Positions 7,786 to 12,750 of a stretch of DNA of 51,598 nucleotides are shown here, piece after piece (the stretch's first letter is position 1; every line of letters begins with the position of its first letter). The DNA is from Clostridiales bacterium (GTDB lineage: Bacteria > Bacillota > Clostridia > Oscillospirales > UBA644). The stretch lies in assembly GCA_016281805.1 (NCBI GenBank), contig JAEEJJ010000130.1, forward strand, positions 1-51,598. The letters run 5' to 3'. Position numbers and translations under genes: made by a program. Below the pieces are notes generated by a model. It did not search any database. It was not told the origin of the DNA and was given only the letters and a program-made list of their open reading frames with translations.

Positions 7786-7790
7786 CCTTT

Positions 7791-7945
7791 TCAATTCTCT
7801 TTGTAGATAAATTCGTGTTTTATGCCGTTTTTGAAGGTTATCGACATCACACGCCCATTTTTTATACAAAAGTTGTTACTTACCGTTTTTATAAAATCCT
7901 TCAAAATTCGCGGGTCAATTTCTTTAAGTAAAGATATTGTCTCAG
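7791..7945 (-). pseudogene. possible 3' stump of an unidentified minus-strand gene
   Basis: The minus frame reads ...SLLKEIDPRILKDFIKTVSNNFCIKNGRVMSITFKNGIKHEFIYKEN and stops just before the bidirectional terminator. The upstream part of the same track ORF is antisense to the next CDS and looks non-coding. Confidence 0.3.
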
Positions 7946-7968
7946 CTGTAGATAACGAAGGTGGAACG

Positions 7969-8451
7969 ATGTTCGGTCTGCCTTTCAGATTGAAACAGCC
8001 TACTTCCATGGCAGGTAAAATCGCTGAAGATGTGGCGAAGGGAGATTCAATAGAAGATGCATCAGGAGAAATAAGGGACGCCGTAAGGTACACGGCTATC
8101 TTTCCTGAGGAAAACTTCACTGACGGCTATTACAAAGTGAAGAAATCTCTGGAAAAGAAAGGCTATGAAGAGGTCCGATGCAAAAACTTTTACGAAATGT
8201 ACGAAGCGGGAGACCAATGCCAGAAGGCTGTTCAATGCGTATATAAGGATAAATCGGGATATGTGTTTGAGTTTCAGTTTCACACGGTAGACAGCGCAGG
8301 GGCAAAAGAGGTAAACCATCCCGTATATGAAGAGTTCAGAAAAGCCACAGTGCCGAAGGAAATAAAAAACAAATATTTCGGGAATATGAGGTACATCGGA
8401 ACTCATGTTCCTGTTCCACGCGGTGTCATGGGTATAAAGTCGCACGGATAA
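7969..8451 (+). CDS. RelA/SpoT-synthetase (RSH/SAS)-fold nucleotide pyrophosphokinase-like protein, short or 5'-truncated
   Basis: GAAGGTGG RBS before the ATG at 7969. The motifs RLKQPTSMAGK (R-x-K-x3-S-x3-K), RDAVRYT, FEFQFHT (E-x-Q-x2-T) and NHPVY occur in the order and spacing of small alarmone synthetases. Confidence 0.5.
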   Translation: MFGLPFRLKQPTSMAGKIAEDVAKGDSIEDASGEIRDAVRYTAIFPEENFTDGYYKVKKSLEKKGYEEVRCKNFYEMYEAGDQCQKAVQCVYKDKSGYVFEFQFHTVDSAGAKEVNHPVYEEFRKATVPKEIKNKYFGNMRYIGTHVPVPRGVMGIKSHG

Positions 8452-8463
8452 CACAAACGGGTC

Positions 8464-8492
8464 TTGAAATATCATCTTAAATGTGATATAAT
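8464..8492 (+). promoter_or_regulatory. promoter (TTGAAA-17-TATAAT)
   Basis: Hexamers at 8464-8469 and 8487-8492. The RBS AGGGAGG and the ATG at 8516 follow. Confidence 0.6.
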
Positions 8493-8515
8493 AAGAATAA
8501 AGGGAGGCATAAACA

Positions 8516-8755
8516 ATGGCACGGACGCGATATTATTTACATGAACGAGAATCGTACCCTGTTAGACTTGTAAAGCTGGAATTTGACGACGAAGGCTTTC
8601 CAGAAGGGTCAGGATGGAAAGACGGCAAATGGGAGCCTATCAGCAACCGCTTGGAGTTGAGTCTTCTTAACGACCTCACACCTTATCATGACATTACCGA
8701 AGAAGAAGCCAAGGCGTACCTGAAATCACAGGAAAAGGCTTCAAAGCAGGAATAA
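8516..8755 (+). CDS. hypothetical 79-aa acidic protein (candidate immunity/antitoxin)
   Basis: It has a strong RBS and its own promoter. I recognise no motif in it. It lies between the synthetase-like and hydrolase-like genes. Confidence 0.55.
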   Translation: MARTRYYLHERESYPVRLVKLEFDDEGFPEGSGWKDGKWEPISNRLELSLLNDLTPYHDITEEEAKAYLKSQEKASKQE

Positions 8756-8788
8756 AATACAGTTTAGAAATTTGTAACCGTTTAGCTA

Positions 8789-8816
8789 TTGATTGGTAAC
8801 CTTTATCGCGTATAAT
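8789..8816 (+). promoter_or_regulatory. promoter (TTGATT-16-TATAAT)
   Basis: Hexamers at 8789-8794 and 8811-8816. The context TATAATAAATACG is shared with the promoter at 11513. Confidence 0.55.
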
Positions 8817-8846
8817 AAATACGTAAGATGGGAGGGATGCTTTTTG

Positions 8847-9257
8847 ATGTTAAACAAAGCACTCCTGATGGCGTATGAAGCGCACAAAAATCAGGTTGAC
8901 AAAGGCGGAGAGCCGTATTATCTGCATTCGATATATGTTGCTCTGACAGTGCAGGGAGAAACCGAGAAAATCGTTGCTCTGTTGCATGACATTGTGGAAG
9001 ATACAGACGTTACGCTTGGAGACCTTCGGCGTGAAGGATTCTCAGAACAGGTGATTGAAGCTGTTGACGCAATAACTCACCGCGGTGAGGATTACGATGA
9101 ATATATAAAGAAGGTCAAGAGCAATCCGACCGCAACAAAGGTGAAAATCGCTGATATTCACCACAACATGGACATCACGCGGCTGAAAGAGGTTACAGAG
9201 AAAGATAAAGCACGTATTGAGAAATACAAAAGGGCTCTGAAATATTTACAGGAATAA
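8847..9257 (+). CDS. single-domain HD hydrolase of the RelA/SpoT hydrolase type (small alarmone hydrolase-like)
   Basis: GGAGG RBS, then the ATG at 8847. Contains AYEAHKNQVDKGGEPYYLH, ALLHDIVEDT, AITH and VKIADIHHNMD, the HD_4/SAH pattern. About 136 aa. Confidence 0.8.
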   Translation: MLNKALLMAYEAHKNQVDKGGEPYYLHSIYVALTVQGETEKIVALLHDIVEDTDVTLGDLRREGFSEQVIEAVDAITHRGEDYDEYIKKVKSNPTATKVKIADIHHNMDITRLKEVTEKDKARIEKYKRALKYLQE

Positions 9258-9258
9258 T

Positions 9259-9288
9259 CAGGCGGCTGAAAAGCCAGCCTGTTTTTTT
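9259..9288 (+). terminator. rho-independent terminator
   Basis: Stem CAGGCGGCT / AGCCAGCCTG with one bulge and a GAAA loop, followed by TTTTTTT. Confidence 0.7.
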
Positions 9289-9340
9289 ATATCAAGATAC
9301 ACCATAAAATATTCATTGCTCTTTATAGGAAAGGGCTACA

Positions 9341-11101: not shown

Positions 11102-11105
11102 TACA

Positions 11106-11345
11106 ATGAAAACTCCCACATATGAAGAGTTCGAGAAGGCTGTTACGTATTACTTCAAGGATGGATGGAAGACCTTGAGCGATGAGCAGGTAATGGAATA
11201 TATAAAAAGCGAAGAAGCGCAAGAAGCAATAAGAGAAAAATACGCTGACGATGTTTCTGCTTACGAGAGCGGAAAGATAACACGCAGACAGTTTATGGTC
11301 GGCGGGGCTTCTGCTGTTGGCAACTGTCTGGTATATATGTACTAA
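11106..11345 (+). CDS. hypothetical 79-aa protein
   Basis: It starts 4 nt after the preceding stop, is the last gene before a terminator, and has no recognisable motif. Confidence 0.5.
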   Translation: MKTPTYEEFEKAVTYYFKDGWKTLSDEQVMEYIKSEEAQEAIREKYADDVSAYESGKITRRQFMVGGASAVGNCLVYMY

Positions 11346-11414
11346 CCGTAAAGCAAAGGGCAAGACCAGCTAAATAATTAAATATCTCATCTGCCATGTG
11401 TAGAAGGAGTTTTC

Positions 11415-11451
11415 AAAGACGTTTTGTTTAGGCAAAGCGTCTTTTGTTTTT
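11415..11451 (+). terminator. rho-independent terminator
   Basis: Stem AAAGACG...CGTCTTT with extra inner pairs, followed by TGTTTTT. Confidence 0.7.
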
Positions 11452-11512
11452 ATGCAAAAAAGCAGTCCGCAACAACCTGCTTAAAAATAAACTAAAAATT
11501 CAAGAAGAGGGC

Positions 11513-11541
11513 TTGACCGAACGCGAAAAATCGGATATAAT
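11513..11541 (+). promoter_or_regulatory. promoter (TTGACC-17-TATAAT)
   Basis: Hexamers at 11513-11518 and 11536-11541, about 17 nt upstream of the ATG at 11558. Confidence 0.6.
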
Positions 11542-11557
11542 AAATACGAGCAGGAAG

Positions 11558-12127
11558 ATGAAGGTCTCTGCAACTGGCTCGAACAAATTCAAGGTCGGTT
11601 TTACAGAAAAAAATCTCGACCGCCACTGGGGAGGGTCGAGCGACCCCAGCGATGAGTACCCTGGCTGGACCAAAGAACAATATGCACAAAGAGCTTTGGA
11701 GCTTGTTCAGAGCGCAACAAGTGAAAATGTTTTAGGTTACAAAACATCCAGCGGTGCGATAGTAAGGTATGATAAAGCAACTAACGACTTTGTTAAGGGC
11801 TATCCCGAAACAGGTGTAGTGTCAATGTACAAGCCAGAAGACGGTGAGGAATACTTCTTGCGCAGGTTAAAAAAAGAGAGTGGCATCACAACCGACAGTA
11901 AGGAGGAAAATATGCCCGAAGGTAAGCACTTATGTCCCGTATGTGGTAAGTATGAGTTCCCAGAAGAGGACAGCCTCGATGTATGTGAGGTCTGTGGCTG
12001 GGAGGATGATGTGATTCAGGAAGACGACCCTGATTACAGAGGCGGTGCAAATAAGATGAGCCTCAACGAAGCAAAGGCAGCGTGGGAGAAATCAGGCGGA
12101 ACAATACCGAAGCCTTATGGCTTGTAA
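11558..12127 (+). CDS. toxin-like alpha/beta domain (BECR-RNase-like?) fused to a CPCC-family cysteine-rich zinc-ribbon domain
   Basis: The track start at 11444 lies inside the terminator, so I use the ATG at 11558, downstream of the promoter. The C-terminus (CPVCGKYEFPEEDSLDVCEVCGWEDDVIQEDDPDYRGGANKMSLNEAKAAW) is the Cys_rich_CPCC pattern. The N-terminal part (RHWGG...EYPGWTKEQY...VRYDKATNDFV...SMYKPEDGEEYF) resembles toxin tips of phage or polymorphic toxins. Confidence 0.6.
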   Translation: MKVSATGSNKFKVGFTEKNLDRHWGGSSDPSDEYPGWTKEQYAQRALELVQSATSENVLGYKTSSGAIVRYDKATNDFVKGYPETGVVSMYKPEDGEEYFLRRLKKESGITTDSKEENMPEGKHLCPVCGKYEFPEEDSLDVCEVCGWEDDVIQEDDPDYRGGANKMSLNEAKAAWEKSGGTIPKPYGL

Positions 12128-12280
12128 TTTGCCGAATTTGCGCAGGTTCATCCGAGCAGAGGAATTATACTACTCTGTATAGAACCCGTCCTGCTACATA
12201 GTTATTTTAAGCTATTATTGACGATAAAGGTGAGTGACGGAAACGCCACTTGCCTTTATTGCGTTATAAGGAGAAATCGA

Positions 12281-12492
12281 GTGCATAAAAGAAAGGCTAT
12301 TTCGTAAACCACCCTATCGTAACATCGGTCGGAATTTTTGAGTACAAGAACCCTGACGGAAGTACAAGAAGGGAGTGACGACTCCCCGAAGATGTCTTTG
12401 ATGCCGAGAGCCTCGCGTCATATAAAGGAAAGCCCATTATCATGACTCACGATGCTGGCTATGTTGATAAAAACAACAGTTCTTTGTGTTGA
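12281..12492 (+). pseudogene. DUF2213-like phage head scaffold/protease gene fragment (frameshift, in-frame TGA, 3' truncation)
   Basis: AAGGAG plus the GTG at 12281 gives MHKRK, followed by an apparent 1-nt frameshift in an A-run. The shifted frame reads KGYFVNHPIVTSVGIFEYKNPDGSTRRE*RLPEDVFDAESLASYKGKPIIMTHDAGYVDKNN, with the TGA at 12376-12378. Confidence 0.6.
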
Positions 12493-12583
12493 TGATATGG
12501 CGACAATCCACGTCGCATGGGACAACGGCTCTGGGCTTGGAGTGGCGTACGGGGAAGATTATTGCAGAAGAATCGAACAGTAA
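12488..12583 (+). pseudogene. C-terminal fragment of a DUF4314-like domain
   Basis: VDDMATIHVAWDNGSGLGVAYGEDYCRRIEQ* matches the DUF4314 core (IHV-WDNGS-L). It has no upstream domain or start signal and directly abuts the DUF2213-like fragment. Confidence 0.5.
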
Positions 12584-12595
12584 GCCGCAAAGGGA

Positions 12596-12624
12596 TTGAC
12601 AATTATCCGTGACTGTGATAATAT
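12596..12624 (+). promoter_or_regulatory. promoter reading into tgt (TTGACA, then TGTGATAAT/TAATAT)
   Basis: TTGACA at 12596-12601 and a -10 region at 12614-12624. Its GGG-TTGAC context resembles the other island promoters. Confidence 0.5.
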
Positions 12625-12750
12625 ATGTATACGATGCAAAAACGTTGTCTTTACGCGATTGAGAACCACATGATTCAGGGATAGAAAACTCATATCCCGT
12701 GAACATATGGGACGCAATGTTTATAGAGTAACGGTTTTAGTGAAAGGGAT

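Follow-up and report, generated by a model that had tools for sequence, protein, structure and literature searches.

A probable prophage remnant with toxin and immunity cassettes between queA and tgt in a Clostridiales bacterium

In a 51,598-nucleotide stretch of DNA from a Clostridiales bacterium (assembly GCA_016281805.1, contig JAEEJJ010000130.1, forward strand), hereafter referred to as the window, the genes queA and tgt are separated by 5,030 nucleotides (nt) of additional DNA. Very probably, a temperate phage akin to the Faecalibacterium phage FP_Brigit integrated here in the last codons of queA, and the block is its remnant, now immobile, in which toxin and immunity cassettes survive. 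An earlier, sequence-only reading had noticed about 5 kilobases (kb) of extra DNA at this position and regarded it as the eroded stump of a prophage or an integrative conjugative element (ICE) that kept toxin-type cargo. The spacing and the Pfam-confirmed genes agree with the first point, and the second is borne out by empty sites in related genomes, toxin tips of phage type, the tail of an integrase and attachment (att) sites. Since an integrase tail and att repeats were found, the element is attributed to a phage rather than an ICE.

Attachment sites and integrase vestige at the 3' end of queA

The features that define the insertion are listed below in window coordinates.

6680-7720, forward strand: queA (PF02547, E value 3e-140)
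7700-7720, forward strand: attL core GACGCTATG with the phage-supplied last codons and stop of queA (DAMFIG*), sequence GACGCTATGTTCATTGGATAG
7751-7785, no strand assigned: hairpin terminator between queA and the integrase vestige, visible in the sequence
7791-7930, reverse strand: phage integrase pseudogene of the large serine recombinase type, with ~46 C-terminal codons left, detected by tblastn
12696-12731, forward strand: attR, consisting of the P arm CCCGTGAACATATGG, the core GACGCAATG and the displaced native queA tail (DAMFIE*), with the tail repeat GACGCAATGTTTATAGAGTAA at 12711-12731
12751-13884, forward strand: tgt (PF01702, E value 2e-155), starting 19 nt beyond the end of attR

The empty state of the locus is represented in a comparison set of 80 tgt loci from uncultured Oscillospirales-type Clostridia (tgt identity 71-90%). 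In 47 of them the end of queA lies 6-36 nt from tgt, the order asd(-), queA(+), tgt(+) is kept, and none of the eight open reading frames (ORFs) of the block, designated o1 to o8, occurs between the two genes; the block is therefore an insertion. Such an empty-site comparison had been suggested in the sequence-only reading, and the conserved synteny in relatives that it named as counter-evidence was absent. Gaps of 78-212 nt were observed in nine further genomes of the set, and ten carry unrelated inserts of 0.6-3.3 kb. The block itself recurs with 99.9-100% identity in two independent assemblies of this organism (GCA_016648415.1 and JGI 3300041006) and is not an assembly artefact.

The ends of the element were recognised through the attP sites of related phages. 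These read CCCGTnAnCATAnGG followed by GATGCCATGTTTATAGAATAA, the second part copying the queA tail (a mimic also given as GGGATGCCATGTTTATAGAATAA), and excised forms with both the mimic and the arm CCCGTnAnCATAnGG are present in the IMG/VR sequences L187, L189, and L198. In the window, this arm stands at the attR side, and the att core is found at the two ends and nowhere between them; the P arm before attR (CCCGTGAACATATGG) matches the attP of L187 (CCCGTAATCATACGG) and L198 (CCCGTTATCATAGGG). Accordingly placed, GACGCTATGTTCATTGGATAG at 7700-7720 and GACGCAATGTTTATAGAGTAA at 12711-12731 form an imperfect direct repeat (~71% identical) flanking the block, and the sole copies of the core motif GAYGCNATG in 7600-12800 are those at 7700 and 12711. 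When integrated copies from different hosts are compared, the sequences upstream (left) of the att core differ, whereas those downstream (right) of it are identical. The att repeat, which is short, was not reported by a generic repeat search and was recovered only via the attP comparison. With the att cores located, the element spans ~7700 to ~12711, replacing the boundaries 7787-12750 proposed earlier. The sequence-only reading had also seen no integrase or recombinase, no tRNA and no flanking repeat; the window indeed contains no tRNA gene, but the integrase vestige at 7791-7930 and the repeat at 7700/12711 are both present.

The vestige was matched by tblastn to the C-termini of large serine recombinases from FP_Brigit (51% identity, E value 1e-7), the gut phage scaffold MT835491.1 (44%) and the Clostridium phage phiCT19406C (39%). 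An intact integrase of the vestige's family lies tail-to-tail with queA in MT835491.1 and in the IMG/VR sequences L181, L182, L184, L191, and L197; queA is full-length in these five, of which the last has an integrase only 50% identical. The same arrangement, cut by the contig end, is found in L180 and L190. MT835491.1 opens with the last 13 queA codons, followed by a hairpin and then by its intact 608-residue integrase. In L187, L189, and L191, the stretch from the att core to the integrase stop contains a hairpin that is homologous to that at 7751-7785 and has an identical loop (CTATGCGG), which indicates that the terminator closing queA is itself phage DNA. The earlier description of queA as closed by this terminator and followed by unrelated material is thus right about the hairpin, whereas the terminator belongs to the incoming DNA. 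The stem arms differ between the window (GTCCTGAA/TTCAGGAC) and the three phage sequences (CCCAGGAG/CTTCTGGG), with pairing preserved via changes on both sides. The terminator is probably bidirectional.

These comparisons document that, in gut Oscillospirales, one family of large serine integrases uses the 3' end of queA as its attachment site. No paper joining queA with attB or serine recombinases was among the matches listed in the literature search. The queA-tgt junction was also considered as a hotspot for similar cargo and rejected as such: the ten other inserts, from related genera, hold unrelated genes, and none has a duplicated queA tail. Of 16 further queA-tgt loci in which the gap is enlarged or holds an insert, none has this tail duplication, and no integrase was detected near tgt in the 80 related loci. 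Among the inserts of other genera are an ABC transporter and a large secreted protein; in another genus (L036, 3789-4383), a pair of genes for 93 and 107 amino acids that appear antitoxin/toxin-like by eye occupies the gap, again without a duplicated queA tail. In the closest species (L002, tgt 90% identical), the contig stops within the queA tail (GTTTATAGGGTAG, positions 1-45), 33 nt before tgt and at the att core, and this break could mean that the population is polymorphic for an insertion at this position.

Toxin and immunity cassettes of the block

The cassette genes comprise the following features.

7924-8451 (ORF 7822-8451), forward strand: o1, 5'-truncated Apk-type (p)ppApp-synthetase toxin domain, from profile and phage homology
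8516-8755, forward strand: o2, IapK-like small immunity protein of 79 amino acids, from position and weak similarity
8847-9257, forward strand: o3, Aph1-type (p)ppApp hydrolase with an HD domain, from a structure-database match
10310-11101, forward strand: o6, a stand-alone protein of full length, made up of a beta-hairpin at the N-terminus, a linker and a C-terminal domain of GNAT fold (residues ~95-256), from AlphaFold2 and Foldseek
11106-11345, forward strand: o7, small immunity-like partner of o6, from position and homology
11500-11911 (ORF 11444-12127), forward strand: N-terminal part of o8, 5'-truncated colicin-D-like RNase toxin tip of the contact-dependent inhibition (CDI) type, from phrog_15528 and Foldseek
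11912-12127, forward strand: CPCC immunity domain in frame with the o8 tip, with its own AAGGAGG ribosome-binding site and ATG (PF14206, E value 5e-18)

The domains assigned to the eight ORFs in the sequence-only reading (RelA/SpoT-like, HD, two ParB/Srx, GNAT-like, and toxin plus CPCC) were all verified, the GNAT call at the level of fold. The expectation that homologues would lie near portal or MuF genes was likewise supported, as o1, o6, and o8 match either the C-terminal ends of MuF or portal proteins or stand-alone genes of the head module.

In the PHROG database, o1 matches positions 333-501 of the 504 in phrog_7625 (head morphogenesis, MuF), that is, the C-terminus, and by tblastn it matches phages of S. 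pneumoniae, Mannheimia, and Pasteurella at their MuF C-termini, which have been characterised as adenosine 3'-pyrophosphokinases and named Apk2 (PMC12226406). The o1-family profile matches the solved alarmone synthetase 8vx3 with an E value of 2e-23, and Pfam RelA_SpoT weakly matches one o1 homologue. In o1, every invariant column of the alignment is kept, the catalytic Asp D86, R89-Y90-T91, and E150-x-Q152-F-H are present, and the RYT and FH (aromatic-His) motifs are the adenosine-type signatures defined in the same study (PMC12226406). The homology to 285-residue phage homologues starts at residue 35, so ~110 N-terminal residues are missing; the probable start is M50 at 7969, after GAAGGTGGA. 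Since, in addition, no MuF (Phage_Mu_F) domain is present in o1 or upstream of it in any frame, o1 represents a tip without its carrier. Its closest relatives (~60% identity) are stand-alone head-module proteins of 280-340 amino acids from gut phages, not MuF fusions.

The two genes after o1 complete the cassette. In the phage IPP32, a MuF::Apk gene is followed by a gene for 69 amino acids and then by an HD hydrolase gene, and in the gut phages L084, L209, and L210, a stand-alone Apk-like gene of 200-340 codons in the head module is followed by the same two genes. The similarity of o2 to the 68- and 69-residue proteins encoded after the Apk genes of L084 and IPP32 is weak (26% identity, pairwise E values 4e-5 and 2e-4), and o2, preceded by the ribosome-binding site AGGGAGG, has no PDB or Pfam sequence match. 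The o3 protein matches the (p)ppApp hydrolase 7smg over its full length (E value 1.3e-34) and phrog_990 (E value 3.5e-51), and is 50-53% identical to the HD proteins of IPP32 and L084. The cassette therefore shares with the Apk2/IapK/Aph1 phage systems, whose biochemistry is described in PMC12226406, the order of a synthetase domain, a protein of ~70 amino acids and an HD hydrolase of ~140 amino acids, as well as the o1 match to those very phages, the RYT and aromatic-His motifs, and the o3-7smg match. It differs in that o1 is cut to its catalytic domain without MuF, the locus is a chromosomal remnant, and the nucleotide specificity of o1 is predicted. Aph1-type hydrolases cross-protect against different Apk2 toxins (PMC12226406).

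The stand-alone Apk-like and RNase-tip proteins of gut phages begin with a short N-terminal motif, either FNPNHDxxGRF-like (P0002, P0005, P0013, P0026, P0077, P0079, P0083, P0102, and P0109) or the DUF7211 motif YHYGIKGxxWGxR (P0046, P0061, and P0073), followed by a Gly/Ser-rich linker. This region, absent from both o1 and o8, may be a capsid-loading or protease-processing signal. A further comparison is offered by toxSAS modules, reportedly described by Jimmy et al. in 2020, in which the toxin is a small alarmone synthetase and the antitoxin a small alarmone hydrolase. Common to both is a RelA/SpoT-type synthetase domain that stands alone beside an HD hydrolase able to reverse its product, whereas the o1 cassette has a clear head-module ancestry, a third (IapK-like) gene, and no match to a PADLOC model.

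The RNase tip of o8 points to a different carrier. Residues ~20-146 match the C-terminus of portal-type proteins (phrog_15528), including the portal C-terminus of FP_Brigit and the portal::tip protein of the IMG/VR phage L102, relative to which o8 is 5'-truncated. Foldseek with the AlphaFold2 model of the tip places 8ey4_A first (template-modelling (TM) score 0.82, root-mean-square deviation 1.9 Å, E value 9e-6) and the colicin D tRNase next, and the profile of the o8-tip family matches the toxin fold with an E value of 8e-4. Position 68, a His in 32 of 37 homologues, is occupied by Pro in o8; by analogy with colicin D, this conserved His may be catalytic, and its replacement probably leaves the tip inactive.

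The CPCC domain (residues 164-219 of o8 in Pfam) is 49% identical to 8ey4_I (CdiI) in an alignment that begins at its own Met (E value 4e-16; Foldseek TM score 0.88), and its AAGGAGG sequence and ATG lie exactly at the start point of the free immunity protein. CPCC is a separate gene in L088, L102, FP_Brigit, and phiS10, whereas in the window it forms one frame with the tip. The CdiA-CT/CdiI pair 8ey4 of E. coli O32:H37 and the colicin D tRNase thus resemble this cassette in the tip fold, and the former also in the likeness of CPCC to CdiI; the differences are the carrier, a phage portal-type protein instead of CdiA, the shared frame of toxin and immunity protein, and Pro in place of the near-invariant His. 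No publication on the activity of 8ey4 was found in the literature search.

The third cassette consists of o6 and o7. The o6 protein is full-length relative to more than 250 relatives and has no Pfam or PDB sequence match. Its AlphaFold2 model has a mean predicted local distance difference test (pLDDT) score of 87.7, exceeding 95 over residues 70-240, and all Foldseek matches listed with E values of at most 0.01 are GNAT-family acetyltransferases (target TM scores 0.4-0.56), so that the predicted assignment is one of fold only. The family consensus, examined by eye, reads RGxDL instead of the textbook acetyl-CoA-binding motif Q/RxxGxG/A. Homologues of o6 lie upstream of the terminase gene in gut phages, and the MuF "minor capsid" proteins of Methanobrevibacter virus vir075 (51.5% identity) and of Microbacterium phages end with a domain of the kind found at the C-terminus of o6. 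The o7 protein is 35% identical to the product of the 89-codon gene that follows the gene for the MuF::GNAT-tip protein in vir075. This virus of Methanobrevibacter gottschalkii (L094) carries, at 3501-4264, the o6-type GNAT tip fused to a MuF-like minor capsid protein, with the o7-like gene next to it. From these sequence comparisons, a toxin-type GNAT cassette appears to be common to bacterial and archaeal gut viruses.

Gene order, parent phage and alternative explanations

The other phage genes of the block provide the link to a particular kind of parent.

9341-9832, forward strand: o4, ParB_N/Srx-like with a C-terminal CxxC zinc ribbon (PF02195, E value 3.5e-7; phrog_620, E value 8.5e-51)
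9847-10326, forward strand: o5, second ParB_N/Srx-like gene with a zinc ribbon (phrog_620), paralogue of o4 with 58% amino acid identity
12292-12477, forward strand: DUF2213 head-module pseudogene, N-terminal ~62 codons (PF09979, E value 1.5e-6), with an in-frame TGA at 12376-12378
12470-12585, forward strand: DUF4314 gene, C-terminal half, last phage gene before attR (PF14192, E value 7e-14, profile positions 35-69 of 69)

Both o4 and o5 score above the PF02195 cut-off, contain AGHTRLKAA (GxxR motif), and are up to 70% identical (o4 62-68%) to single-copy genes upstream of the terminase in gut phages. Among PADLOC defence-system models, the hits of the two ParB domains are confined to the N-terminal region of a model for a type II methyltransferase, and no other ORF of the block was matched, leaving no meaningful match. 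The DUF2213 and DUF4314 fragments had been recognised correctly as decayed phage genes. The protein encoded by the former is 77% identical to FP_Brigit 28131-28316 and 83% to its counterpart in L102; a precomputed Pfam match to DUF4314 also exists on L090.

FP_Brigit (MG711465) is arranged as integrase(-), ParB-like nuclease, terminases, an 828-residue portal protein whose end matches the o8 tip, CPCC, and DUF2213, and L102 (IMG/VR 3300045988_086965) as ParB, terminase, portal::tip, CPCC, and DUF2213. Both phages thus share with the block the order of ParB, toxin tip, CPCC, and DUF2213, and FP_Brigit additionally has a left-end large serine recombinase whose tail matches the vestige. Owing to this collinearity, the right two-thirds of the block can be read as the phage map minus the terminase-portal body and minus the part beyond DUF2213 codon ~62. 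The earlier proposal that a toxin tip followed by DUF2213 is what remains, at the 3' side, when a phage head protein with a variable C-terminal toxin decays is thereby upheld, although the carrier, then suggested to be a MuF or polyvalent protein, is of portal type for the o8 tip in the closest phages. The two phages differ from the block in being intact (40-62 kb), in having a single ParB and neither the Apk triad nor o6/o7, and in protein identities of 30-83%. At the left junction (~7924-7934), the integrase tail is joined directly to Apk codon ~110, and on the right, the DUF2213 remnant is joined to DUF4314.

In all likelihood, then, a temperate phage with a large serine recombinase integrated at the last codons of queA, which stayed intact with a phage-supplied end, stop and terminator because attP mimics the queA tail. 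The native tail was carried ~5 kb away, to its present position 19 nt upstream of tgt, and deletions then removed ~90% of the prophage and reduced the integrase to its last 46 codons, so that the remnant should no longer be able to excise. The survivors are three polymorphic-toxin-type cassettes of head proteins with their partner genes, the two ParB-like genes, and the DUF2213 and DUF4314 fragments.

Several observations weigh against this reading. Composition lends it no support, since the block has a GC content of 0.431 against 0.421 for the window, GC3 is barely higher and skew is no different; the contrast with the flanks anticipated in the sequence-only reading did not appear, and composition was discarded as a marker of the block, being uninformative either way. 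The integrase evidence amounts to ~46 codons, and promoters and terminators were called from consensus matches alone. Searches for the parent phage yielded no close intact relative, and the best protein matches other than self are 57-83% identical. Finally, the Apk triad lies to the left of ParB in the window, and in every phage examined it belongs to the head module, to the right of ParB, so the order cannot be explained by one collinear phage and simple deletions. The protein searches yielded no relatives of o1, o6, or o8 closer than ~60%, searches of IMG/VR by peptide patterns yielded no close relatives of o6 and o8, and in a DNA-level search of the whole block against phage records, the ParB genes alone matched.

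The displaced triad may mean that the parent phage had it beside the integrase, or that the block is a mosaic of two prophages, or of a resident remnant recombined with an incoming phage, with separate origins for the triad and for the ParB-to-DUF2213 part. The mosaic is possible but rather unlikely. The triad of stand-alone o1 relatives adjoins a prohead protease and capsid gene, or MuF and protease genes, in the differently laid-out phages L084, L209, and L210, the tip/DUF2213 part is Brigit-like, and two diverged ParB paralogues stand side by side where related phages have one; there is, however, a single pair of att cores and a single integrase vestige, no example of either parent phage was found, and for a parent whose Apk cassette lay beside the integrase, a deletion of ~2 kb at the left junction would suffice. 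An ICE remnant could be considered as conjugative elements, too, encode large multidomain proteins with DUF4314 and ParB-type domains and no virion gene is intact, yet this origin has next to no probability: phages account for the integrase tail, the att arms, the portal/MuF tips, and DUF2213, which also stand in phage order, and no relaxase, coupling-protein, or type IV secretion fragment occurs in any frame of 7700-12750. An array of orphan cassettes, in which serial displacement lets truncated tips and their immunity genes pile up behind a complete toxin gene, where they can be drawn on for tip switching, is also quite improbable. Such orphan toxin/immunity modules are described for CDI, Rhs, and MafB loci (Poole et al. 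2011, as cited in PMC5576092), and they share with the block 5'-truncated tips (o1 and o8) kept with intact cognate immunity genes after them; a 52-nt linker repeat common to o6 and o8 could support recombination. Nevertheless, the tips derive from different carriers or positions (beside a protease or MuF, in a portal protein, or upstream of terminase), ParB genes and structural fragments lie between them, the junctions fall at breaks in phage gene order, and no phage examined has the same tips as tandem orphans behind one MuF or portal gene. The set in the window was made by prophage decay instead of displacement behind a resident toxin, and no full-length carrier gene is left.

While the phage origin of the block, its boundaries, the loss of the integrase, and the domain identities are established, its retention may reflect selection for immunity, addiction to the o1 cassette, or recent origin. 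The lost N-terminal parts of the toxin domains were presumably needed for capsid loading, and the immunity genes keep good ribosome-binding sites, two of them with promoter-like sites of their own. With the carriers and one His lost and the immunity signals kept, any present role of the decayed prophage is probably that of a standing stock of immunity genes, in which no more than one toxin (o1) is latent and probably held in check. Selection for immunity, which concerns persistence and not origin, would mean that the block was kept because the IapK-like protein, Aph1, o7, and CPCC protect against toxins of related virions or lysing kin, a suggestion that is at best tentative. It draws on the intact partner genes of all three cassettes, which have good ribosome-binding sites, on the truncation of two of the three tips, the one with His replaced by Pro having an intact CPCC domain, on the promoter-like sites of o2 and o3, on the cross-protection reported for Aph1-type hydrolases (PMC12226406), and on the identity of the block in three assemblies. 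Because these copies are identical, there is no population signal and no signal in the ratio of nonsynonymous to synonymous changes; o1 keeps every conserved catalytic-motif residue, and toxin/antitoxin addiction therefore explains retention equally well, and the two ParB genes and o6 are at odds with a picture of immunity alone.

A more far-reaching version, which we consider speculative and unlikely, is that of a maintained immunity island, in which, all virion, replication and lysis genes having gone, independently expressed IapK-like, Aph1, o7, and CPCC proteins shield the host against toxins that related phages inject or release, the tips are available for recombination with incoming phages, and the GNAT tip and o7 constitute an uncharacterised toxin/immunity family spanning bacterial phages and an archaeal virus; if true, this would be a phage-derived counterpart of the orphan-immunity clusters of contact-dependent and type VI systems. 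The component families are all known, namely MuF polymorphic toxins and Apk2/IapK/Aph1 (PMC5576092, PMC12226406, PMC10083569), CDI toxin/CPCC immunity (8ey4), serine-integrase prophages, and prophage remnants. What is new lies in the detail: the attachment site at the 3' end of queA, whose tail the attP mimics, the Apk-like proteins that stand alone in the head module, the pair of GNAT tip and o7, and the in-frame toxin-immunity fusion. The locus, a genome scar of an ordinary kind that does not overturn current understanding, is valuable as a resolved case of prophage decay, in which att sites and a 46-codon integrase stub stay, structural genes are lost, and toxin/immunity cassettes remain. 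It also offers candidates for study, including a stand-alone Apk-like synthetase with two partners, a GNAT-fold tip with a small partner, and a natural toxin-immunity fusion.

Transcription signals and neighbouring features

The predicted signals of the block, apart from the terminator closing queA, are given below.

8464-8492, forward strand: promoter-like site TTGAAA-17-TG-TATAAT just upstream of o2, predicted, 11 of 12 consensus positions
9264-9279, forward strand: terminator-like hairpin after o3, found by scan
11415-11444, forward strand: terminator-like hairpin of 13 pairs after o7, found by scan
12596-12624, forward strand: promoter-like site TTGACA-17-TAATAT, TG-extended, in the phage right arm and facing tgt, found by consensus scan

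All three terminators of the sequence-only reading were recovered, two by scan and that at 7751-7785 by inspection, its 9-nt loop accounting for its absence from the scan. The several near-consensus promoters that it reported were supported in number, with 25 promoter-like sites in the consensus scan against 15.0 +/- 3.4 in shuffles, but two of the best (10526 and 11513; TTGACC-17-TATAAT) fall within a repeated coding motif. This is the 52-nt direct repeat (75% identity) at 10515-10566 in o6 and 11502-11553 in o8, encoding the common linker EEKGLTKSGKSGIIE / QEEGLTEREKSDIIN, which also occurs in o8 homologues. The GLT and II codons of the linker (GLT...SG.I) generate the two sites; they were thus rejected as real internal promoters, since they may be coding by-products. 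Alternatively, the repeat may be a recombination handle between tips.

A second promoter-like site lies at 8789, so that o2 and o3 each have a predicted site of their own, and from their ribosome-binding sites and the sites at 8464 and 8789, the immunity genes appear to be positioned for their own expression. Severed from the queA promoter, tgt is probably transcribed from the predicted right-arm promoter at 12596-12624. In L189, an outward-facing TTGACT-18-TGnTATCAT lies ~100 nt to the left of the att core, about the same distance as in the window, and no counterpart of the window's site is present in the attP arms of L187 or L198. This hints that some related phages may carry a promoter restoring tgt transcription after integration.

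Beyond the block, the operon diverging from queA consists of four genes.

5246-6415, reverse strand: asd
4353-5234, reverse strand: dapA
3571-4332, reverse strand: dapB
3075-3578, reverse strand: ACT

A lysine riboswitch (RF00168, 76.7 bits) is located upstream of this operon at 6400-6590 on the reverse strand, and a thiamine pyrophosphate (TPP) riboswitch (RF00059, 76.3 bits) is found elsewhere in the window at 36764-36855, also on the reverse strand.

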